Below are positions 143 to 54,242 of a stretch of 54,242 nt of DNA, piece by piece (the first letter of the stretch is position 1; each line of letters begins with the position of its first letter). The notes under the pieces were generated by a model that ran no database searches, had not been told where the DNA came from, and saw only the letters and a list, made by a program, of their open reading frames with translations. Source of the stretch: a virus (Duplodnaviria; Caudoviricetes); the IMG/VR virus record IMGVR_UViG_3300046835_000018, positions 1-54,242 of that record; one strand, 5' to 3'. The position numbers and the translations under genes are program-made.

Positions 143-565
143 CGTGAGGGTTGCCAACCAATCAACCCTTTCGGAAGGAGACAGTCATGTCGAAGAAGAT
201 CGTGATCGAAGAGAGTGACCGTCAGGTCTACCTGGAGGTCCTCCAGACCGTAGTCAACGGAGACGAGTACTCCGCCTACGCGGTCCACACCGTTCTCAAC
301 CAGATCCTGGTCGCGAACGGTCTGGAGAAGGTCCGCCCGCAGATGATGTACAACTACGCGCGGAACGGTCTGATCGTGTCCGGAGAGAAGATCTTCGGCG
401 CGACGCTCCGTACCTTCACTCCGGTGGAGGTCATGGAGTTCCTCATCCGGTACTGCGTCCGGAACGGAATCGAGATCAAGGTAGGACAGCCTACCGACCC
501 GAACCAGGAAGCCCTGTTCGAGATCTAGAAACTGACTGACCCCTCACGAACCTCCTCATGTTCGC
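126..565. repeat. Inverted repeat pair (126-150 / 541-565) bracketing the first gene
   Basis: GGAGGTTCGTGAGGG (136-150) is the exact reverse complement of CCCTCACGAACCTCC (541-555); extends to ~25 bp with 3 mismatches. Confidence 0.85.
187..528 (+). CDS. Putative HTH-type DNA-binding protein
   Basis: ATG after AAGGAG RBS; KVRPQMMYNYARNG segment resembles KVVPPQVVYSYVKNN of 7291-7794. Confidence 0.55.
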   Translation: MSKKIVIEESDRQVYLEVLQTVVNGDEYSAYAVHTVLNQILVANGLEKVRPQMMYNYARNGLIVSGEKIFGATLRTFTPVEVMEFLIRYCVRNGIEIKVGQPTDPNQEALFEI

Positions 566-7290: not shown

Positions 7291-7794
7291 ATGCAGCCGA
7301 GCACTCCCGACTTCGAAGACGCCGGCACTGAGAACGAGCTGGACCTCGAGGTCAACGACGACGCGAACCTGGACGTGGACATCCCGGCTGACGACGAGAC
7401 GGACGTTCCGGTGAGCGAGGGCGACGAGACCAAGGCGGCCAAGCCGGCCAAGGCCACGCGTCCGAAGGCACCTGAAGGCTTCGTGAAGCCCGTCGAGTTC
7501 GCGAAGATCCTGTCGGCGCACCTGGACAAGGTGGTTCCGCCGCAGGTGGTCTACAGCTACGTCAAGAACAACCAGGGCGACACCGCGAAGAACCCGTTCC
7601 CGGTTCACACCGGCTCGGACGGGTACGAGTGGTACATCAAGCCCGAAGAGGGTCTGAAGTGGTGGGACAACAAGAACGCGCGTGTCACCGCTTCCAAGGC
7701 CGCCAAGGCTGAGAAGGCCGCCAAGAAAGCCAGTGCCGCGGAGGCGACGACCATCGCCGACAGCGAGCCTACGGCGGTAGTCGAAGCCGAGTAA
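7291..7794 (+). CDS. Putative DNA-binding protein (acidic N-terminus, HTH-like core, Ala/Lys-rich tail)
   Basis: AAGGAG RBS; KPVEFAK..PPQVVYSYVKN core; AKAAKAEKAAKKA histone-like tail. Confidence 0.6.
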   Translation: MQPSTPDFEDAGTENELDLEVNDDANLDVDIPADDETDVPVSEGDETKAAKPAKATRPKAPEGFVKPVEFAKILSAHLDKVVPPQVVYSYVKNNQGDTAKNPFPVHTGSDGYEWYIKPEEGLKWWDNKNARVTASKAAKAEKAAKKASAAEATTIADSEPTAVVEAE

Positions 7795-17293: not shown

Positions 17294-19549
17294 GTGAAGT
17301 GCATGGTACAACCGGATACACTGGAAGAAGATAGAAGTGCTTGGAACATCTTCTTTCGTGTCGTCTTTGGTCAGCGGGTCGATGGGTACGTCTGCATTGC
17401 CTATATGAACATCGGCGACGGTGGAAAGAAGAAGTGGGAAGAACACTTCTTTCAGTGGCCGGAAGAGCTTCCGCGGATGTTGACTCACCTCGAGGTGAAC
17501 TACAAGCAGGGCAATACGTACTTCTGTCCGCAACTCATGCTGACAAAAGATCGCCCTCCAGGAGCCAAGAGCCCACGAGTCAAAGAGAACATCGCACCTT
17601 GCACAGTCGCCTGGGCTGATCTAGATACGTGTTCGCCAGAACTAATGCTGGTAGAGCCTAGCGTAGTGGTCCTAAGTTCGGACAACAGATACCAGGCCCT
17701 GTGGGTTTTCGAGCAACCAATTGACCCTGCCGATGCGGAACAGATCAGCAAGAACATTGCCTACCACCACGTGTCCGATGGCGCTGATGGAGGTGGTTGG
17801 GACCTAACGCAGATGCTGAGGGTGCCTCACACCTACAACATGAAGCGCGACATACCATTTCGTGTCAAGACTCTGAAGATCACCAAGGTCAAGCACACCA
17901 TTGAAGACTTCAACGTCTACAAAGAGTCACGGATCAGTTCTAGAGACCACGACCCGATGCCTCAGGTGCTGCCGACCGAGACGCCATTGGATATCCTGCA
18001 GAAGTATCGCAGGTCATTGAATCCGGTGGCGTTCAGCATCTTCGATGTGACACCACAGATCACCGAAGTCGATGGTGGATGGAGCAAGGTTCTCTGGCAG
18101 CTGATCATGCTTCTATTCGAAGCTGGTCTCTCAAGGGAAGAAGTGTTCGTCGTCGCGAGCGACGCGGCCTGCAACAAGTACAAGCGAGACGGTAAGCATC
18201 CCAAGCTGCTCTGGGAAGAAGTGTGCAGAGCATACCAAGCAACCGTCGAGAAGCTGAACATCCTCGTACCTGAAACAGTCAAGCAAGCACCGCTGATCAC
18301 TCAAGAAGAGCTCGACTCGATCTCACATTATCACACCTTCATCGACCGCTATGTATCGTGGGCAAGTAGACTTGGCGACGCGGCAACACAGTACCATCAC
18401 GCAGGTGCTTTCATGATCCTCAGTTCACTACTCGCAGGCACAATCCGATTGCCCACATCATTCGGCGTGATCATGCCCAACATGTGGTTCATGCTTCTAG
18501 CTGATACGACATTGACACGTAAGTCGACGGCCATGGACATCGCCATGGACATCGTTGACCAGGTCGATGACACCGTCCTACTAGCAACGGATGGTTCACT
18601 AGAAGGTCTTATGCAGTCACTCGAGATCAGACCAGGAAAGCCGTCGATGTTCCTTCGCGACGAGTTCTCGGGCCTAATCGAATCGATGACTCGTAAGGAC
18701 TACATGGCAGGCATGGCTGAAGCACTTACCAAGTTGTACGACGGCAAGACAATGAAACGAGTACTAAAGCGTGAGACAGTAACTGTTCGCGAGCCCTGCC
18801 TCTTAATCTTCGGAGGTGGCATCAAGACGCGAGTGCAGTCACTGCTCACACTCGAGCATGTTGCTTCTGGATTCGTACCTCGATTCATCTTCATTACGGC
18901 TGAATCGGATGTAAGTCGGCTACAGCCACTAGGTCCACCTACTCCTGACAACCTAGCTGAGAGAGACGAGATCGTCGAAGAGCTCATGGAGCTTCGAGAC
19001 AGGTACGTCTTCGATCAGGAGATCGTCGTCAAGGGTAAGGCTATCGGCGTCTCTGAATCTAGGATCATGGCGAGCTTGACCGAAGAAGCTTGGGCTCGCT
19101 ACAACATCCTCGAAGCTACAATGCTGTACGCAGGTGTCAATAGTGATCAGCCAGACATCATGACGCCTGTATACGACCGTCTGGCGAAGTCAATTCTCAA
19201 GGCATCGGTGCTTATTGCAGCATCGAATCAGAAAGAACGTGGCGAGGTAATCGTTACACTGAACGACCTACTCACAGGGTTGAAGTATGGCAGTGAGTGG
19301 TTGAAGTACAGTACCGAGATTGTGAACGGTATCGGACGTACTGCCAATGAGCAGCTACTGCAACGCATCATGCAGAGCATTCGTAGGCACAAGGGCGTAT
19401 CTCGTTCACAGTTGATGCAGTGGTACCACCTCGAAGCTCGACAGGCTGAAATCATCTTCAACACGCTCGAGCAACGAGGCATGATCATTGCAACACGCAT
19501 GGGCAGAACTTGGGTATACGATGCAGTAGGAAGGATCAGGGCAGAATGA
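17294..19549 (+). CDS. Primase-helicase (RepB'-like primase + DUF3987-like P-loop domain)
   Basis: WADLD, SSDNRYQALW, LRVP.TYN.K; RKST, GSLEGL, RDEF, LYDG, SGFVPRF. Confidence 0.85.
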   Translation: MKCMVQPDTLEEDRSAWNIFFRVVFGQRVDGYVCIAYMNIGDGGKKKWEEHFFQWPEELPRMLTHLEVNYKQGNTYFCPQLMLTKDRPPGAKSPRVKENIAPCTVAWADLDTCSPELMLVEPSVVVLSSDNRYQALWVFEQPIDPADAEQISKNIAYHHVSDGADGGGWDLTQMLRVPHTYNMKRDIPFRVKTLKITKVKHTIEDFNVYKESRISSRDHDPMPQVLPTETPLDILQKYRRSLNPVAFSIFDVTPQITEVDGGWSKVLWQLIMLLFEAGLSREEVFVVASDAACNKYKRDGKHPKLLWEEVCRAYQATVEKLNILVPETVKQAPLITQEELDSISHYHTFIDRYVSWASRLGDAATQYHHAGAFMILSSLLAGTIRLPTSFGVIMPNMWFMLLADTTLTRKSTAMDIAMDIVDQVDDTVLLATDGSLEGLMQSLEIRPGKPSMFLRDEFSGLIESMTRKDYMAGMAEALTKLYDGKTMKRVLKRETVTVREPCLLIFGGGIKTRVQSLLTLEHVASGFVPRFIFITAESDVSRLQPLGPPTPDNLAERDEIVEELMELRDRYVFDQEIVVKGKAIGVSESRIMASLTEEAWARYNILEATMLYAGVNSDQPDIMTPVYDRLAKSILKASVLIAASNQKERGEVIVTLNDLLTGLKYGSEWLKYSTEIVNGIGRTANEQLLQRIMQSIRRHKGVSRSQLMQWYHLEARQAEIIFNTLEQRGMIIATRMGRTWVYDAVGRIRAE

Positions 19550-20382
19550 AGGTACTCGCTGTTGTGTCAGGTGGATTGGACTCCACCACACTCATGTACG
19601 ACCTCCTCTCGGGAGGTGACGAGGTCCAAGCGATCTCGTTCAACTACGGTCAGCGCCACAAGCGTGAGCTGGTGTACGCTGCGGCCAACTGCAAGGCGCT
19701 GAACATTCAGCACGACATCATCGACCTTCGCACTCTGACGGAGTTCCTCAGCAATTCGGCGCTCACGTCGAACAAGGAGATCGAGGTTCCTGAAGGTCAC
19801 TACGCCGAAGACAACATGAAGCAGACGGTCGTTCCGAACCGCAACATGATCATGCTGTCGATCGCCACAGGCATCGCGATCAACCGAGGGCTCAACACCG
19901 TCGCGACAGCAGTTCACGCCGGCGATCACTTCGTCTACCCGGACTGCCGTCCCGAGTTCATCTTCTCACTCGGCCAGGCGATCCTCGATGGCAATCAGGG
20001 CTTCCACAACTTCTTCGTCGAGGACATCGAGCCCATCGTGATCGGCGATCGCACCTACAGCAAGACGGCCAAGCCGCTTACCACTCCGTACATCCACCAG
20101 ACGAAGGAGGAGATCGCAGTTCGAGCCCTCGAGCTCGGCGTGCCTCTTCACCTCACGTGGAGCTGCTACAAGGGTGGTGACCAGCACTGTGGTCGATGTG
20201 GCACCTGCGTCGAGCGTCTCGAAGCGATCCACAATGCGCTCATCACGTGGAACGCTCACACCAGTCCTGCAGAGCGACGCTACGACGCGACACCGTACGA
20301 GGACGAGGAGTACTGGAAGGTCGTCGTCGGCAAGACGAGGGTCGAGACCACCTCTGACGTCACAGCGTACGAGGAGAACTGA
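19546..20382 (+). CDS. queC: 7-cyano-7-deazaguanine synthase
   Basis: SGGLDS, YGQRH, VPNRN, YPDCR, TWSCY..CG.CGTC. Confidence 0.97.
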   Translation: MKVLAVVSGGLDSTTLMYDLLSGGDEVQAISFNYGQRHKRELVYAAANCKALNIQHDIIDLRTLTEFLSNSALTSNKEIEVPEGHYAEDNMKQTVVPNRNMIMLSIATGIAINRGLNTVATAVHAGDHFVYPDCRPEFIFSLGQAILDGNQGFHNFFVEDIEPIVIGDRTYSKTAKPLTTPYIHQTKEEIAVRALELGVPLHLTWSCYKGGDQHCGRCGTCVERLEAIHNALITWNAHTSPAERRYDATPYEDEEYWKVVVGKTRVETTSDVTAYEEN

Positions 20383-20849
20383 TGCACAGCATCTTCGTGA
20401 ACCACAACATGGAGATCGCCCACCGGCTCTCCATGCTCCCAGGCAAGTGCCAGAAGATCCATGGACACTCCATGCAGATCACTCTTCGGCTCGACGGTGA
20501 GCTCGACGAGGACGGCATCCTCTGTGGTATGGACTTCGGTGATCTGAAGCGGGCCTTCCGCAACTTCATCGACACCGAGTTCGACCACCGACTCATCCTC
20601 AACGAGTCCGATCCCTGGGCGCGGCAACTGAAGCAGCTCCCCGAAGACAACGGGATCTCAGAAGCATCTGCCCATTACCAACGACTTCCAGGTCTCAAGA
20701 CCACGCCTGGAGATCCCACTACAGAGAACCTCAGCAAGTGGATCTGTGAGTGGGCCGTGGGACAGGTTGAGGTGTTCGGCATCACAGCCGTGCACGTGAC
20801 CATCCACGAGACCGGCACCAATGGTGCTATGACCAAGTGGTCAAAGTAG
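20382..20849 (+). CDS. queD: 6-carboxytetrahydropterin synthase
   Basis: AHRL...KCQKIHGHS, DFGDLK, FDH, PTTEN, ET. Confidence 0.95.
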   Translation: MHSIFVNHNMEIAHRLSMLPGKCQKIHGHSMQITLRLDGELDEDGILCGMDFGDLKRAFRNFIDTEFDHRLILNESDPWARQLKQLPEDNGISEASAHYQRLPGLKTTPGDPTTENLSKWICEWAVGQVEVFGITAVHVTIHETGTNGAMTKWSK

Positions 20850-20861
20850 TAAGGAAGTTGC

Positions 20862-21209
20862 ATGTCCGAAATGTTGCTCTCCGCCGATGTCTTCTGGGCA
20901 ATCGCTATGACCCCAGTAACATTGGTCGTACTGGTCCTCCTCGCTTGTGTGCTCAGCAACCGGTCAAGTCGTAGCCCTCATCAGCACGACCTGGCCGACA
21001 CAGCGTTCTGGACAGCGGTAAAGCTCGACCAAGCTTCACGCGGCGCCGTACTTGGTACGCCAGAGCCTCTCGAGCCAGTCGCCGAGACAATCTCGTTGTA
21101 CACAGCAACACTATCTGAAGTGCAGACCTACCTGATCAAGGCACGAGAGGCCCGACGCCTCGAGCGCCGCGAGTTTGGAGCACTTATGCGAATGGCTCGT
21201 ACCGCTTAA
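20862..21209 (+). CDS. Membrane-anchored hypothetical protein inside the que cluster
   Basis: N-terminal TM helix. Confidence 0.6.
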   Translation: MSEMLLSADVFWAIAMTPVTLVVLVLLACVLSNRSSRSPHQHDLADTAFWTAVKLDQASRGAVLGTPEPLEPVAETISLYTATLSEVQTYLIKAREARRLERREFGALMRMARTA

Positions 21210-21258
21210 TCCGTCTGGGAGGTCCTCTTCGGAGGACCTCCCCTATCAAGGAGGGCAT

Positions 21259-21951
21259 ATGCGTCTATCAGAGGTGTACACCTCGACGCAGGGAGAAGGA
21301 CCGAAGGTAGGCATTCCAACCACCTTCGTCAGGTTCGCAGGCTGCAACCTGAAGTGTGCTGGATGGGCTTGCGACACTCAACACGCTATCGATCCGAAGC
21401 TGTACCGCAAGGACTGGCTCGAGCTCGGTCCCGAGCAAATCCTCGAGATGATTCTCGATGAGACAGGCAAGACTGGTGCTCGGAACGTCTGCTTCACCGG
21501 CGGCGAGCCTTTCCTTCAGGAGCACGATCGCCTGCTCAAGCTCATCTCGATGTGCGCCATGGAACGCCTCGACATGGAGGTCTTCACCAACGGTACCATC
21601 GAGTGGCCTCATCGAGCCATGCACCGGATGAACTTCGTCATGGACTGGAAGCTCTCAGGATCAGGCGAGAACGTTCGCGAGAGCGACGCCGTGTGGCAGA
21701 ATGCTCTTCGGCTCGGACCGAAGGATGCCATCAAGTTCACCGTCGCCTCCGATGACGACCTGGGCGAGGCGTACGACACATACATGCGCATCCAACCCCA
21801 GGTCCGCGACGTGCAGTTCTTCGTCGGCCCGGTCTGGGGCAAGATGGAACCTTCAGTCGTCGTCGACTGGATGCTCCGAATGGGTCTTCCATGGCGCCTT
21901 AACATCCAGGCGCACAAGTACATCTGGCCAGCCGATGCAAGGAGGACATGA
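21259..21951 (+). CDS. queE: 7-carboxy-7-deazaguanine synthase (radical SAM)
   Basis: QGEG, FVRFAGCNLKC..CDT, TGGEP, TNG, QAHK.IW. Confidence 0.95.
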   Translation: MRLSEVYTSTQGEGPKVGIPTTFVRFAGCNLKCAGWACDTQHAIDPKLYRKDWLELGPEQILEMILDETGKTGARNVCFTGGEPFLQEHDRLLKLISMCAMERLDMEVFTNGTIEWPHRAMHRMNFVMDWKLSGSGENVRESDAVWQNALRLGPKDAIKFTVASDDDLGEAYDTYMRIQPQVRDVQFFVGPVWGKMEPSVVVDWMLRMGLPWRLNIQAHKYIWPADARRT

Positions 21952-22313
21952 TGGGTGGTCACCCGATGGAGAACGTTCCCGATCCTCGACACGAGGAGCA
22001 GCAGACCGCCTTGGAGAAGCTGCGAGCACTCTTCGTAGCCCAGCCAAAGCCGTCAGCTCCAAGGCCTGAGGTTACTCCGAACCGCAAGGACCTTCGCTCG
22101 AAGGGAATCGGCACGAGCAAGTCGTTCACCAAGGGTACTCCTTTCGCGAGGATGACCCGCTACAAGGTGAACGGATCCGATCTCGACCGCTACGTCACGT
22201 TCTACTACAAGGACGAGAACGGCAAGACGACCAAGAGGGTCACGCTCCCGAAGGACAAGGTCGACATGGACTCGGTTCGTGCCCAGAGAGAGGCTCAACG
22301 TGCCGCTCGGTGA
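21948..22313 (+). CDS. Basic hypothetical protein inside the que cluster
   Basis: AGGAGG RBS, coupled to queE and folE. Confidence 0.65.
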   Translation: MMGGHPMENVPDPRHEEQQTALEKLRALFVAQPKPSAPRPEVTPNRKDLRSKGIGTSKSFTKGTPFARMTRYKVNGSDLDRYVTFYYKDENGKTTKRVTLPKDKVDMDSVRAQREAQRAAR

Positions 22314-22974
22314 TCCGCTCCGCAACATCAATCCTGAACTGCGACTCAAGATCGAAGAGAGGATGGCCCACATGACCAACGCACTCGGAGCGGACGGACC
22401 TACATTCCGTCAGATGGCCTTGGACAAGGAGGCTGAAGAGGCTGCCGAGGTTGTTCTTCGCCTCGCTTGCGACCTCGACGTGAACGACATGCACGGCAAG
22501 GAGACACCGCTGCGCTTCGTCCAGATGCTTCGGGAGCTCACCACGCCGCAGCCAATCAAATGGAAGACGTTCCCGAACGAGGGATACGATGAGATGATCA
22601 TCGAGCGGAACATTCCGTTCACAAGCCTCTGCAACCACCACGTCATCCCATTCATCGGCGTCGCTCATGTCGGCTACATCCCCGACAAGATCGTTCCGGG
22701 TCTCAGCAAGATCGCCCGAGTCGTCCAGCACTACGCCAAGGCTCTCCAGGTTCAGGAGAAGCTGACCAAGCAGGTCGCAGACTTCCTGGAAGAGAACATG
22801 CAGCCTCTCGGTGTCGCCGTCGTGCTCGAGGCTGAGCACATGTGCATGACGATCCGAGGCGTGCAAGTTCCCGGCACAACAACGTACACGGCTGCAATGC
22901 GTGGACGCTTCGCCGACCACGAGAAGACCGCAAAGGCTGAGTTCCTCAGCCGTATCAACGGGAGTCACCGATGA
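22300..22974 (+). CDS. folE: GTP cyclohydrolase I
   Basis: ETPLR, SLCNHH, GLSKIAR, QVQE, EAEHMCM.IRG. Confidence 0.96.
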   Translation: MPLGDPLRNINPELRLKIEERMAHMTNALGADGPTFRQMALDKEAEEAAEVVLRLACDLDVNDMHGKETPLRFVQMLRELTTPQPIKWKTFPNEGYDEMIIERNIPFTSLCNHHVIPFIGVAHVGYIPDKIVPGLSKIARVVQHYAKALQVQEKLTKQVADFLEENMQPLGVAVVLEAEHMCMTIRGVQVPGTTTYTAAMRGRFADHEKTAKAEFLSRINGSHR

Positions 22975-41586: not shown

Positions 41587-41961
41587 CTACGCGTTCGGGT
41601 TGCTGAGGTCGAGGTCCTCGACCGGCGCCGGGGCAGGCTCGCCCGGAAGACCCTGGTCGGGAGCCGGTCCGCCCTCCGGAGGAGTGGTGCCCTCCGGCGA
41701 AGCAGCCTCGACCTCGGTGTCGAGCTGCTCGTTGGCCGCGATGACCTTGTCGAGCTCGGCGATGGCCGCGGTGGTGTCGCCCGACTCGATGAGCCGGCGA
41801 ACGTCCTTCAGCAATTCGGTCTGTCCTGCCTGGAGCTCGGCGATACTCGCCATCAGCTCAGCCTGTCCTGCCATGAGGCTCTCACCCTTCTTGATGATCT
41901 TGGTCGTGAGTGTGATCAGGTCGTAGATCTTCTGGATGACTGGATCAGTTGGTGCTGTCAT
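41587..41961 (-). CDS. Hypothetical protein (coiled coil, Pro-rich tail)
   Basis: 124-aa ORF in the head module. Confidence 0.6.
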   Translation of the reverse strand: MTAPTDPVIQKIYDLITLTTKIIKKGESLMAGQAELMASIAELQAGQTELLKDVRRLIESGDTTAAIAELDKVIAANEQLDTEVEAASPEGTTPPEGGPAPDQGLPGEPAPAPVEDLDLSNPNA

Positions 41962-52233: not shown

Positions 52234-52578
52234 TTAGGCTCCGCGCTGAGGCATCCCAGCGTCTGAGCGCTCAGCGTCGTTGTCTGCCAGCTTGTTGACC
52301 AGGGCGATCAGCAGGTCGTCAGCGCCGCCAGTGACCTTGAAGCCGCCACCGATAACGCCATCGATGATGTACTTGGCCGCGCTGAGCCGAACGTTCTCGT
52401 TGCCTGCGTACGAGGACAACCAGGCAACACTCTGCGCAGCTCCTGGAGCCGCCTGCATCAGGATCTTGCGAGCGAGCTCCTCATCAGTGAGCTCTGCCTC
52501 AACAACCCTCTGCATATTCAGACGCGCGAGCATCTCATCCGGGACCCACTCGTCATCCGGTACGATTTCCCTAGGCAT
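52234..52578 (-). CDS. Putative terminase small subunit
   Basis: First gene of the late arm; helical, VRLSAAKYIID motif. Confidence 0.5.
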   Translation of the reverse strand: MPREIVPDDEWVPDEMLARLNMQRVVEAELTDEELARKILMQAAPGAAQSVAWLSSYAGNENVRLSAAKYIIDGVIGGGFKVTGGADDLLIALVNKLADNDAERSDAGMPQRGA

Positions 52579-52633
52579 CGACGTCTCCCGCTTGCATCTG
52601 AAATGCTGTACACAGTACTGGTCTTCTCTCCTT

Positions 52634-52639
52634 ATTATA
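52634..52639 (-). promoter_or_regulatory. -10 element of the late arm
   Basis: GGTATAAT on the - strand; no clear -35. Confidence 0.45.
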
Positions 52640-52780
52640 CCTTATTCAGCACCAAAATGCATACTAACTCATCTATATTAGTACTACAACCAACGCCCTC
52701 CCCCTTGTATCCTCGACCACCTGTCCCTCACTTTCGCTACGAGCATCATCAACCTACCTTAATTCATTAGGCACCCCTCT

Positions 52781-52873
52781 TAGACTCTAAAGAGACAAAC
52801 AACCGTGACTTTCTAGCTACATAGTAGAGTCCTTTAGTCTCTTATAGGTCTTAACTAGTCTCTTAAACGTCTA
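52781..52873 (+). repeat. 93-bp phased AGAC/GTCT element, copy 4
   Basis: TAGAC 52781, GAGAC 52792, 40-bp spacer, GTCT at 52837/52848/52858/52869. Confidence 0.85.
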
Positions 52874-53183
52874 AACTGATTCTTAAGCTAGCGTTTAAGT
52901 GACCTACGTACTAGGTGATACATGAACACTGTCACTTCCAAAAACAAGCTCGGCGAGATTTTAGCCCACGGGGAGTAAATGATCTTGAAAAAACTGGTAT
53001 AATATAGTTATAACGTGCGAAACCAAACTAAATCGGACCAAATCGGACCAATCCGGTTCAAGTGGGCGAAATCGGACGTTATCGTCATTTAATAACTCAA
53101 AAGCGGAAGAACCAGACAAAAACGGACCTTATCCGGTCCTACCGTCGTATATCCGGTCAAAACCGGACAAACGGAGGTAAAAC

Positions 53184-53402
53184 ATGATAAGTGCGGCTAA
53201 GCTCGTACAAATCCGCGCAGAAGCGGATTTAGTATGCGAAACATGGCAAAACCATGTTGAAGTATGCGAAATGTGCGAAAAATGGTATGAACTCGGACAT
53301 TTCGAGACATACCAGCTTAAATGCGTCGAAGGTTATATCATTCGAGAGAAAGTAGTACTTTTCCTGCTACTTCTCGACAAACCGGAACATTTCAGCCAGT
53401 AA
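53184..53402 (+). CDS. Small HxxxCxxC protein
   Basis: GGAGG RBS; HVEVCEMC...C. Confidence 0.6.
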   Translation: MISAAKLVQIRAEADLVCETWQNHVEVCEMCEKWYELGHFETYQLKCVEGYIIREKVVLFLLLLDKPEHFSQ

Positions 53403-53532
53403 CATAACAAAACCGGATATACGGCGATAAGACCGGATAAGATCTGACGAACCTTGATAAACCGTATCAAATCCGCTTCTACCGGCGCATATTCGGACAA
53501 ACCATCCGAAAGGAGCCGAAATGGGCGAAAAT

Positions 53533-53709
53533 ATGGAGATACGCGAACAAATCATGCAATACCTGGAGGATTTGGGCGAAATCGCGACAGAACATGCGAA
53601 TTCGTGCAAAACCTGCTGGAATCCGGAAACTTCCGGACAATGCATGCTAAAAGCGACGATAACGGTCGAAATTATGACCTATCGGCGTAAGTTCTCCGAA
53701 ACCGTCTAA
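53533..53709 (+). CDS. Small HxxxCxxC protein
   Basis: AAGGAG upstream; HANSCKTC...C. Confidence 0.5.
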   Translation: MEIREQIMQYLEDLGEIATEHANSCKTCWNPETSGQCMLKATITVEIMTYRRKFSETV

Positions 53710-54098
53710 AACCGGTCCAAACCATCTAATGTCCGGATATGCGTCGATAAAAGCGGATTTGTTACGAAGAAAGAGGATAAACCGTCCTCTATGCGGATTT
53801 GTCCGGATTTAACCGGACATTCGCCGACATAAGGAGGTTTCGTATGAAAAGGTACGTTAAGCGCGAGTTCTGGCCGGTTCGAGCCGATTTAGCCGAGTTT
53901 GCGTCGTATCCGCTCGCTATATGCGGATGTTGCCGGATATTTTCCGGTATCGCCGGATATGGCCGGAGAAAGGACCTAATCATCCGATAACTGCCGATAT
54001 GTCCGGACAAATCCGTATAGAAGGCGGTTTATCCTGATTAGTCCGGGTTGAGCCGTTTTGGCCGGATTTGTCCGGCTATATCCGGCTTTAGCCCCAGA

Positions 54099-54242
54099 TG
54101 ATCCGGTTTAGACTGGATCATCCCTACGATCCGGAATCGAGACCTCGCTACACAGGTCCGGATCGTCCGATCCACAGCCTCTTTGCTTCCGATCCTGAAG
54201 ATCTTTTTAGGGGGGGGGGGGGGGGGGGAAGTTGTGGAGGTT
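54099..54242. repeat. Terminal direct repeat / circular overlap (right copy)
   Basis: Matches 1-142. Confidence 0.9.

Follow-up and report, generated by a model that had tools for sequence, protein, structure and literature searches.

A ten-base lattice kept by selection across the early genes of a soil phage, and its possible role as a track for a DNA-wrapping protein

Here we describe a lattice of ten-base units, 110 in register and 109 of them complete, that is laid over the head of the early operon of a soil phage. The phage (Duplodnaviria; Caudoviricetes) is represented by IMG/VR record IMGVR_UViG_3300046835_000018, a contig of 54,242 bases, and it is this whole stretch that we call the window. 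The most remarkable part of the observation is that the lattice lies over two real genes. It is kept there by selection at the nucleotide level and is not a relic. Our favoured reading, to which we give a probability of roughly 0.35, is that the array is a track with one site per helical turn for a cooperative DNA-wrapping binder. Phage genomes are reported to lack helical-repeat periodicity as a rule (Abel and Mrazek 2012, PMC3431218), and we found no description of a kilobase-scale phased lattice over phage genes in a literature search that did not extend to subscription journals and supplements. With a 10-bp code that selection maintains over real genes in two clades of phages, nature offers a clean example of a second, structural code constraining synonymous and even non-synonymous sites, and, whichever reading is correct, it supplies a simple Fourier signature for finding such domains in viral metagenomes.

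A preliminary description of the sequence had drawn attention to the tetranucleotide CCGG, said to hold a strict phase of 10.0 bp, and this is borne out over an extent larger than was noted there. The tetranucleotide occurs 27 times in 53000-54242. The 25 sites at or before 54110 all start in three adjacent registers (position modulo 10 equal to 3 in 17 cases, to 2 in six and to 4 in two), an outcome whose chance is (0.3)^25, or 8e-14; the two sites beyond 54110 start at 1 and 8. Their density is 25 in the 1.1-kb array as against 3-4 per kb elsewhere. Writing 53021-54120 in rows of ten (n = 110) gives the column consensus A70 t39 C62 C49 G63 G67 a52 t48 A68 A61. The Fourier spectrum of the S/W sequence (G+C versus A+T) over 53031-54106 has a single sharp peak at 10.00 bp with a normalised power of 120.0, whereas the maximum power over 2-20 bp in 500 dinucleotide-preserving shuffles averages 7.9 (sd 1.8) and goes no higher than 16.4. 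When 500-bp windows are slid along the whole genome, the ten strongest peaks at 9-11.5 bp all fall within 52801-54200; elsewhere the best such peak is 6.4 and the median 2.1. There is no 3-bp spectral peak in the array region. The dinucleotide CpG occurs 101 times in 1090 bp, in fixed register and at 1.69 times expectation, GC content is 0.47 in the lattice versus 0.56 in the rest of the genome, and AA and TT are phased 4.9 bp from CG, which agrees with the half-period offset reported in the preliminary description. Tandem Repeats Finder marks no more than five short patches. The array is not an assembly artefact, since assembled contigs from four soil-metagenome runs, one of them possibly the record's own source, span it with at most one differing letter, which lies in a 230-base piece over the poly-G end.

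Selection on the lattice is seen both in the codons of the genes beneath it and in the letters that its relatives have kept. For the first, the same proteins were resampled with the codon usage of the genome, 2000 times each. The 10-bp power is 13-25 in five conserved copies of the open reading frames (ORFs), two in the window, two in the related contig L009 and one in L008 (relatives are cited here by handles of the form G001 or L009), and lies within the same range in ORF3, which is unconserved and read one base out of frame. The re-coded means are 2.5-8.1, and in no case does any of the 2000 resamplings reach the observed power. For ORF1 the S/W power at 10.0 bp is 15.3 versus 3.9+/-1.4 after re-coding, and for ORF2 it is 21.6 versus 5.6+/-1.6; six ordinary small genes of the window have a 10-bp power of 0.1-1.0. 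ORF1 and ORF2 are real genes, since they are kept in relatives, have conserved cysteine motifs and are least conserved at third codon positions. The earlier statement that the phase is held through two protein genes and lost after ~54110 therefore stands, with both genes conserved and their codon choice carrying the lattice; the frame then placed at 53533 begins at an in-frame internal ATG of ORF2 (53521-53709). For the second, identity to L009 and L008 depends on lattice position (chi-square p=0.008 and p=5e-5, respectively), being highest, at 69-82%, in the A-run positions 9, 10 and 1 and lowest, at 43-56%, in the linker positions 2 and 7; third-codon-position relaxation is also seen in ORF1 and ORF2. 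The phase survives ~31% nucleotide divergence, and conservation in diverged relatives was what the preliminary description had proposed to look for. Orthologous units are 0.69 identical, paralogous units 0.40 and adjacent units 0.39, so the pattern is not maintained by homogenisation of the repeats.

The array has a definite place in the operon. Positions 1-143 of the window repeat 54100-54242 and differ from them solely in the length of a poly-G run, so the map is circular or permuted, and the downstream neighbour of the array is the gene at 187-528; what the preliminary description took for the assembly end is hence not a genome end. (The record is listed as linear and 85% complete, yet its ends overlap.) The lattice lies in the divergent gap that separates the rightward and leftward gene arms. 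It sets in ~10-20 bp past a promoter-like element and ends ahead of the first conserved early gene (Table 1). The element is made up of TTGAAA (52985-52990), an extended -10 TGgTATAAT (52995-53003) and TTATAA (53008-53013). It is unchanged in both L008 and L009. Twelve genomes each have a single copy of its 16-base core, and nine or ten of these show the full element; a simple consensus promoter scan did not flag it.

Table 1. Features of the window discussed in the text
Feature	Position	Strand	Description
Lattice	53021..54110	.	110 (109 complete) in-register 10-base units, consensus A-t-C-C-G-G-a-t-A-A
Promoter-like element	52983..53013	+	GATCTTGAAA-N8-TATAATATAGTTATAA; reads into the lattice
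A-type block	53021..53760	+	Mostly AAA-Y-CGG-A-Y; AAA 48 vs TTT 8; leader, ORF1, ORF2
ORF1	53184..53402	+	72 aa, Cys-rich (CxxC..C); GGAGG 6 nt before ATG
ORF2	53521..53709	+	62 aa; AGGAG 5 nt before ATG
T-type block	53761..54110	.	Mostly flipped G-TCCGGA-TTT; TTT 13 vs AAA 6; no conserved ORF
ORF3	53844..53990	+	48 aa; AGGAGG 6 nt before ATG
Post-lattice stretch	54100..54242	+	GATC cluster, GCTACAC box common to relatives, poly-G 54210-54228
gp187	187..528	+	113 aa; first conserved early gene; candidate reader
gp7291	7291..7794	+	167 aa; acidic N-terminus, Lys/Ala-rich tails (AAKPAKA, KAAKAEKAAKKA); second candidate reader
TerS-like gene	52234..52578	-	Weak PHROG match; first in the leftward late operon

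About half of the array is coding. ORF1, with a hairpin just 5' of it, is kept in frame in L009. ORF2 carries the motif YLxDLxEI..EH..CxxC..G.C..ATIxVEIMTYxRK and is kept in L009, in L008 and, more distantly, in G006; a family search found no relatives beyond the L008 and L009 contigs. ORF3 is conserved in neither of these two. Four distinct AGGAG/GGAGG sites occur in the array, and three of them lie 5-7 nt ahead of an ATG, those of the three ORFs of 72, 62 and 48 codons, which are also preceded by the inverted repeats TCCGG..CCGGA, TTCGGA..TCCGAA and GTCCGG..CCGGAC, respectively. Past the stop codon of ORF2 the units switch from AAATCCGGAC-type to GTCCGGATTT-type with the register kept, in the window as in L008 and L009.

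Relatives were defined by TerL, and the 39 with at least 3.5 kb of sequence upstream of terL were scorable: 14 carry an array, one is ambiguous and 24 have none, though L015, counted among these 24, is really unscorable. On a quick TerL tree the arrays fall into two clades. In that of the window, seven of 11 members are positive, and their arrays are 0.5-1.2 kb long with a 10.0-bp period. In a second, lower-GC clade all eight scorable members are positive, the arrays extend over ~7-10 kb and the period is 9.2-9.8 bp; 9- and 10-nt spacings both occur, and spacings of 9, 18 and 27 nt are found inside genes. In whole-genome scans, seven array-bearing genomes each had a single periodic zone, and five others had none at all. 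Close relatives may be array-free, sisters of array-bearing phages included, and G007 and G008, whose TerS-like and TerL proteins are 57-58% and 76-78% identical to those of the window, have an array nowhere in the genome. The array-free genomes join the promoter-like element directly to the gp187 homologue, so the array and the small genes within it form an accessory insert at the start of the early operon. In two of these genomes the place right after the conserved element holds something else, ~60 bp of TTAATTAA-type A/T repeats in G013 (L115-L118) and an A10 run in G023.

The letters of the unit vary from array to array. In G004/L011 the units read nnnnAAATCG and the lattice is retained over 1.1 kb with a single CCGG, the arrays of L012 and L013 have 10-11 CCGG and are equally strong, and the units of G006 are AAAYCGG. 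What is constant across nine segments from seven phages is an A-run (or T-run) counter-phased to a CpG-centred G/C block. Given the single CCGG of G004/L011, the shared core is AAA-Y-CG and a CCGG-specific reader is ruled out. In G001 (L088), a complete 81-kb genome, the periodic zone covers ~5.8-15.9 kb (~10 kb) with a period of 9.2-9.75 bp and a GC content of 0.47 versus 0.42 in the genome. It holds ~16 small orphan genes, each 3' of ATGTCCGnC...AAATCGGACAAAGGAGACAAAATG, and none of the ten lattice genes searched has a PHROG family. The word GGACA is found there at 11.2 per kb in the sense and 2.8 per kb in the antisense direction, as against 0.70 per kb elsewhere, a 16-fold sense enrichment. 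These features of the G001 zone recur in L048, L050, L052, L053, L057, L058 and L077, and the inverted repeat ATGTCCGnC...CGGACAT is present in G001 and L048.

We infer that the lattice acts as DNA and is read by a protein filament. Each unit would offer an asymmetric core, an A-run followed by a pyrimidine and then CG(G), with narrow-minor-groove A-runs and flexible CpG steps presented on opposite faces every 10 bp. A small DNA-binding protein would polymerise head to tail on this track, bending or wrapping the DNA, and the filament would control the immediate-early block that starts at the promoter-like element; the accessory early genes, which stand between the promoter and the first core gene, might in this way be shut off, timed or protected. 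Genes inserted in the array would be obliged to keep the track unbroken, and this would explain why the choice of codons in the ORFs, and even of amino acids, follows the 10-bp pattern. The protein-wrapping track is still the best reading because of the bending layout, in which AA/TT lie 4.0-4.9 bp from CG/GG/CC in all nine array segments tested, from seven phages, and because no other 1.1 kb of the genome is as curved under a wedge model (23.7 degrees per 31 bp; genome median 13.2, 95th percentile 16.2). To this extent the wrapping or bending segment of the preliminary description holds, and it is the tie to terS, to pac or to the packaged end that lacks support. The T-type block, which shares the register of the A-type block, speaks for a DNA track, as does the persistence of the lattice in G004 under changed letters.

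A nucleosome-type bending code sets AA/TT against GC-rich dinucleotides in counter-phase near the helical repeat and is read by shape, while protein p6 of phage phi29 covers DNA and wraps it at a fixed periodicity, with early promoters and the origin under its regulation. The counter-phased AA/TT and GC-rich steps of the array, near the helical repeat, are like both; its integer period of 10.0, its polar units and its specific Y-CG core are unlike either. No histone-like or p6-like gene was identified in the phage.

A nearer likeness is to the site arrays of phage Cox proteins and recombination directionality factors (RDFs). The boxes of P2 Cox, TTAAA(G/C)NC(A/C), come in at least six copies, 10-11 bp from start to start and in either orientation, and Cox forms a left-handed filament of nucleosome-like dimensions that represses early promoters (PMC3936717). 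RDFs are described as binding one-turn repeats head to tail, cooperatively and with low specificity, and as spreading (PMC7498355). The readers portrayed in PMC3936717 and PMC7498355 are small winged-helix proteins, encoded first in the early operon, that polymerise and bend or wrap DNA. Like the array, Cox boxes and the sites of 186 Apl and lambda Xis are asymmetric, an A/T run and then G/C, one turn apart, in either orientation and beside an early promoter, and gp187 is the first core gene of its operon, as cox is in P2, apl in 186 and cro in lambda. The scale is another matter: Cox and RDF arrays have 3-10 sites in ~70 bp of non-coding DNA at a promoter or att site, whereas here 110 sites run for 1.1 kb (~7-10 kb in relatives) through coding genes, and where those arrays have a known cognate protein, this one has candidates only and is dispensable among close relatives. 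We do not class the array as a Cox-box member, because its scale is more than tenfold larger, it overlaps genes and its cognate protein is only a candidate. If the protein filament is real, the cooperative one-turn binding of Cox, Apl and Xis would reach beyond a switch of 70 bp to domains of 1-10 kb, and the phage would be a tractable viral model for spreading-type silencing. A more specific form of this, which we consider doubtful, is a chromatin-like domain: a Cox- or Xis-like early protein carrying the module of gp187 and gp7291 would polymerise from the promoter along a continuous track, kilobases in length and maintained through coding sequence at a price in codons and amino acids, and wrap the whole block of accessory cassettes, which would be switched or shielded as one unit, incoming genes having to adopt the lattice.

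The likeliest readers are two paralogous early proteins, gp187 and gp7291. They have in common a module of ~40 aa, YTPYxIxKVxN...IRPQMMYNYxRNG (hhalign probability 93.9%, E 1.6e-7), and the position of gp187 immediately after the promoter-like element in array-free relatives is in favour of it as a candidate. The family of gp187 has 620 representatives (E <=0.001 in a 50%-identity library) with no Pfam model, ten of its members carry no source name, and it is uncharacterised and probably DNA-binding. Among the language-model neighbours of gp187 is a MerR-family cluster (score 0.91), 24% of whose members carry Pfam MerR_1, and the gp187 profile cross-matches a Mos1-type helix-turn-helix repeat protein, which is a hint only; the model of gp7291 resembles clusters of HTH_17, Cox, excisionase and Nu1 type at sub-threshold scores. 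That the two might be winged helices of the MerR, HTH_17, excisionase, Cox or Nu1 type is a lead only. One other gene was considered as a co-occurring reader, a 124-aa gene of the head-tail joining block (41587-41961, minus strand) that is patchy among close relatives. After six genomes it was still a candidate, and G021 and G036 then eliminated it: G004, G005, G006 and G001 have the gene, and it was not detected in G007, G008, G036, G021, G013, G015 or G023. A look-up of doubtful sensitivity found no match to it in 30 records.

A number of observations weigh against a protein track. Sequence and profile searches with gp187 and gp7291 gave no Pfam, PHROG or PDB match. The first is found in array-free phages and missing from the long-array genomes G001 and G021; of the second, G001 shows a weak match and the incomplete genome G021 none. 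A tblastn comparison of 84 window ORFs with 11 other genomes found no gene confined to array-bearing phages. The predicted intrinsic curvature of the array under the wedge model is no more than moderate. The units are polar, with AAA:TTT ratios of 131:42 in coding and 203:59 in non-coding sequence, ~3:1 on the sense strand; they lack the strand symmetry of a nucleosome-type code, and their polarity fits direct repeats but an RNA signal equally well. The 9.2-9.8 bp periods and 9-nt spacings of the second clade fit a helical-face track poorly. No fixed register to the promoter-like core was found across eight arrays, in which the S-block peak lies at 5.9-9.7 bp with a spread of up to ~4 bp. Finally, L009 slips in phase by ~2-3 bp within the stretch of ORF2 that bears an 18-nt insertion, so long-range coherence is not strictly required. 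The second-clade spacings, the polarity, the variable register and this slip keep two other explanations alive, a signal in the RNA and a nursery of genes.

As an RNA signal, the array would act in the early transcript, where AAA-Y-CG(G) every 9-10 nt, partly folded into a series of short A-looped hairpins, would attract or keep off a factor that binds RNA. Such a factor might be a ring or multimer whose subunits each take one short motif, or a ribonuclease, or the terminator protein Rho; in another variant each small early gene has a start-associated element of hairpin plus Shine-Dalgarno (SD) sequence. We judge this explanation, with all its variants, unlikely. The array does come right after the promoter-like element and on the sense strand of the early genes; its polarity is alike in coding and non-coding sequence; GGACA in G001 is enriched on the sense strand; and an RNA reader would tolerate mixed 9/10-nt spacing better than a helical face would. 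Folding also beats dinucleotide shuffles (z -4.8 and -3.3) and shuffles of unit order (z -2.5; 3/300). The hairpins themselves, however, are not conserved, only 19 of ~190 predicted pairs being common to the window and L009. Where both partners of a pair have changed, pairing is retained in 11/25 and 19/37 cases versus 0.35-0.37 by chance, G-U pairs are similarly frequent on the two strands (28 vs 32), and the flipped block holds the DNA register. Sites at which Rho loads (rut sites) are C-rich and G-poor, and a Rho loading site was rejected, the array having as much C as G; a CsrA-type reader was rejected likewise, the GGA that it requires not being conserved in G004. In Rfam there was no match beyond a sub-threshold one to a miRNA model over the poly-G run.

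The start-associated variant has a known counterpart. The SAS/ESAS elements of Cluster K mycobacteriophages and Cluster EF Microbacterium phages (PMC3203893, PMC7302621) are a conserved motif over the ribosome-binding site of a subset of non-structural genes, with imperfect inverted repeats upstream at a variable spacer, in one orientation and of unknown function. Here an inverted repeat and AGGAG stand ahead of every small early gene of G001 and of ORF1-3, in resemblance to those elements. ORF1-3 and about a dozen G001 early genes have the arrangement ATGTCCGnC...AAATCGGACA-AAGGAG-N5-7-ATG; the motif is start-codon-proximal (19 ORFs are listed for G001) and has the upstream inverted repeat, and the intergenic copies of hairpin plus SD match SAS/ESAS elements. 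Those elements are isolated and intergenic, at 11-19 per genome, whereas here the same motif family fills a whole region, ORFs included, in locked phase.

In the gene nursery there would be no reader, and the lattice would be a trace of how a hypervariable early region comes about. A ten-base unit derived from a start-associated element would have been tandemly amplified into sequence open in six frames, from which new small genes arise, and unequal exchange among units would gain and lose cassettes. This account, which strikes us as improbable to about the same degree as an RNA signal, makes sense of the dispensability of the array, absent from 24 of the 39 scorable relatives (with the caveat on L015), of lengths from 0.5 to 10 kb, of the fact that about half of the long alignment gaps are multiples of 10 (10, 10, 10, 20, 30 and 140), and of an array GC of ~0.46-0.48 in genomes of 0.42 and 0.56 alike. 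Every lattice gene tested is an orphan, the family of ORF2 being confined to L008 and L009 and all ten G001 genes lacking a PHROG. As in a minisatellite, the units are head to tail and of fixed length, some gaps amount to whole units, and there is a perfect 2.2-copy duplicate at 53030-53051. Unlike the units of a minisatellite, those of the array are not homogenised, neighbours being no more alike than other paralogous pairs and far less so than orthologous ones, and real genes lie inside. The pattern outlasts divergence with position-specific conservation and persists inside genes under protein-level constraint, whereas a neutral relic would be expected to decay equally at all lattice positions. 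Were the nursery real, it would give an unusually clear view of small phage genes born from tandem repeats.

Packaging or ejection of the genome is considerably less probable as an explanation. The array would be a TerS (pac) wrapping site, a run-up track, just ahead of the terminal cut, for a motor advancing in 10-bp bursts, or a bendable segment that is packaged last and ejected first. It lies 440 bp from the start of the TerS-like gene, and its period is exactly 10.0 and not 10.5 bp, which recalls the packaging motor of phi29 with its contacts to DNA every 10 bp. The array belongs, however, to the early operon, its length varies 20-fold, and it does not go wherever a cognate TerS goes: G007, G008, G013, G015 and G023 are complete or near-complete genomes that encode TerS-like and TerL homologues, and all are array-free throughout. 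The terS or pac link of the preliminary description is thus not supported.

A transcriptional delay line fares no better and seems to us remote. The elemental pause signal of bacterial RNA polymerase has G at -10, a pyrimidine at -1 and G at +1, and one CpG per 10 bp would match such a pause at each unit and slow the polymerase on its way from the immediate-early ORFs to the core early genes. The CpGs in their fixed register, the position of the array past the promoter-like element and ahead of the first core early gene, and a variable length that could tune the delay would all suit this idea, but the best-conserved positions are those of the A-run, which the pause signal leaves unexplained, and the 9-nt spacings of the second clade break the -10/+1 relation. 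As for a decoy or target for restriction, methylation or defence proteins that read CCGG, of which the preliminary description had offered the decoy for defence proteins, the CCGG density well above that elsewhere speaks for it, but the relatives refute it, the lattice being as strong with 10-11 CCGG in L012/L013 and kept with a single one in G004/L011, around the core AAA-Y-CG.

The phage has no close cultured relative among those compared: searches of a phage collection with the array, the G001 array and gp187 found no nucleotide match, and the best cultured TerL match is that of Arthrobacter phage Wollypog, at 37.5%. The bins that hold relatives with 52-56% identical TerL are labelled Saccharibacteria (two, with a third at 34%), Chitinophagaceae (two), Pedobacter, Leptolyngbyaceae, SAR202 and others; they point to no consistent host, and the stretches fetched from them contained no array. 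Contigs of whole-phage size with 52-56% identical TerL (L125-L132) are binned to unrelated phyla, and their labels probably reflect mis-binning and not hosts.

The rightward arm of the genome, from 187 to ~28.2 kb, encodes a helicase, an exonuclease, a Sak4-like annealing protein, SSB, a primase, PolA and a FolE/QueD/QueE/QueC set, and the leftward arm, from ~52.6 kb down to 28.9 kb, encodes the TerS-like protein, TerL, portal, capsid and tail. No tRNA genes were found, and no integrase context was seen among the phage genes examined. At 19510-22974 on the plus strand, QueC-like, QueD-like, QueE-like and GTP cyclohydrolase genes follow one another (PHROG E 1e-30 to 1e-64), the gene set used for 7-deazaguanine modification of DNA; a transglycosylase (DpdA) was not recognised. 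Of 11 genomes compared, nine have the set. The two that lack it, G001 and G021, are array-bearing, and a link between it and the array was rejected for this reason.

The 440-bp gap between the divergent TerS-like gene and early operon includes a 21-bp direct repeat (52835-52877). Its non-coding part at 52579-52982 has many words of the CTAG and TAGAC type, with similar words in L012 and L013, and may be a packaging or replication site. Beyond the lattice, seven GATC in 120 bp at 54100-54203 (equivalent to 2-105) form the densest cluster in a genome with 402 such sites, or 7.4 per kb. The plus strand also bears two runs of G, one of 19 (or 15) bases at 54210-54228 (equivalent to 112-126), between the lattice and the first core early gene, and one of ten bases at 936-945, upstream of the next block. 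G-rich runs occur at the same place in L008, L009, G004, G006 and G015, and metagenome contigs break at the poly-G; the runs are a possible transcript or R-loop signal, or possibly a mere sequencing hazard.

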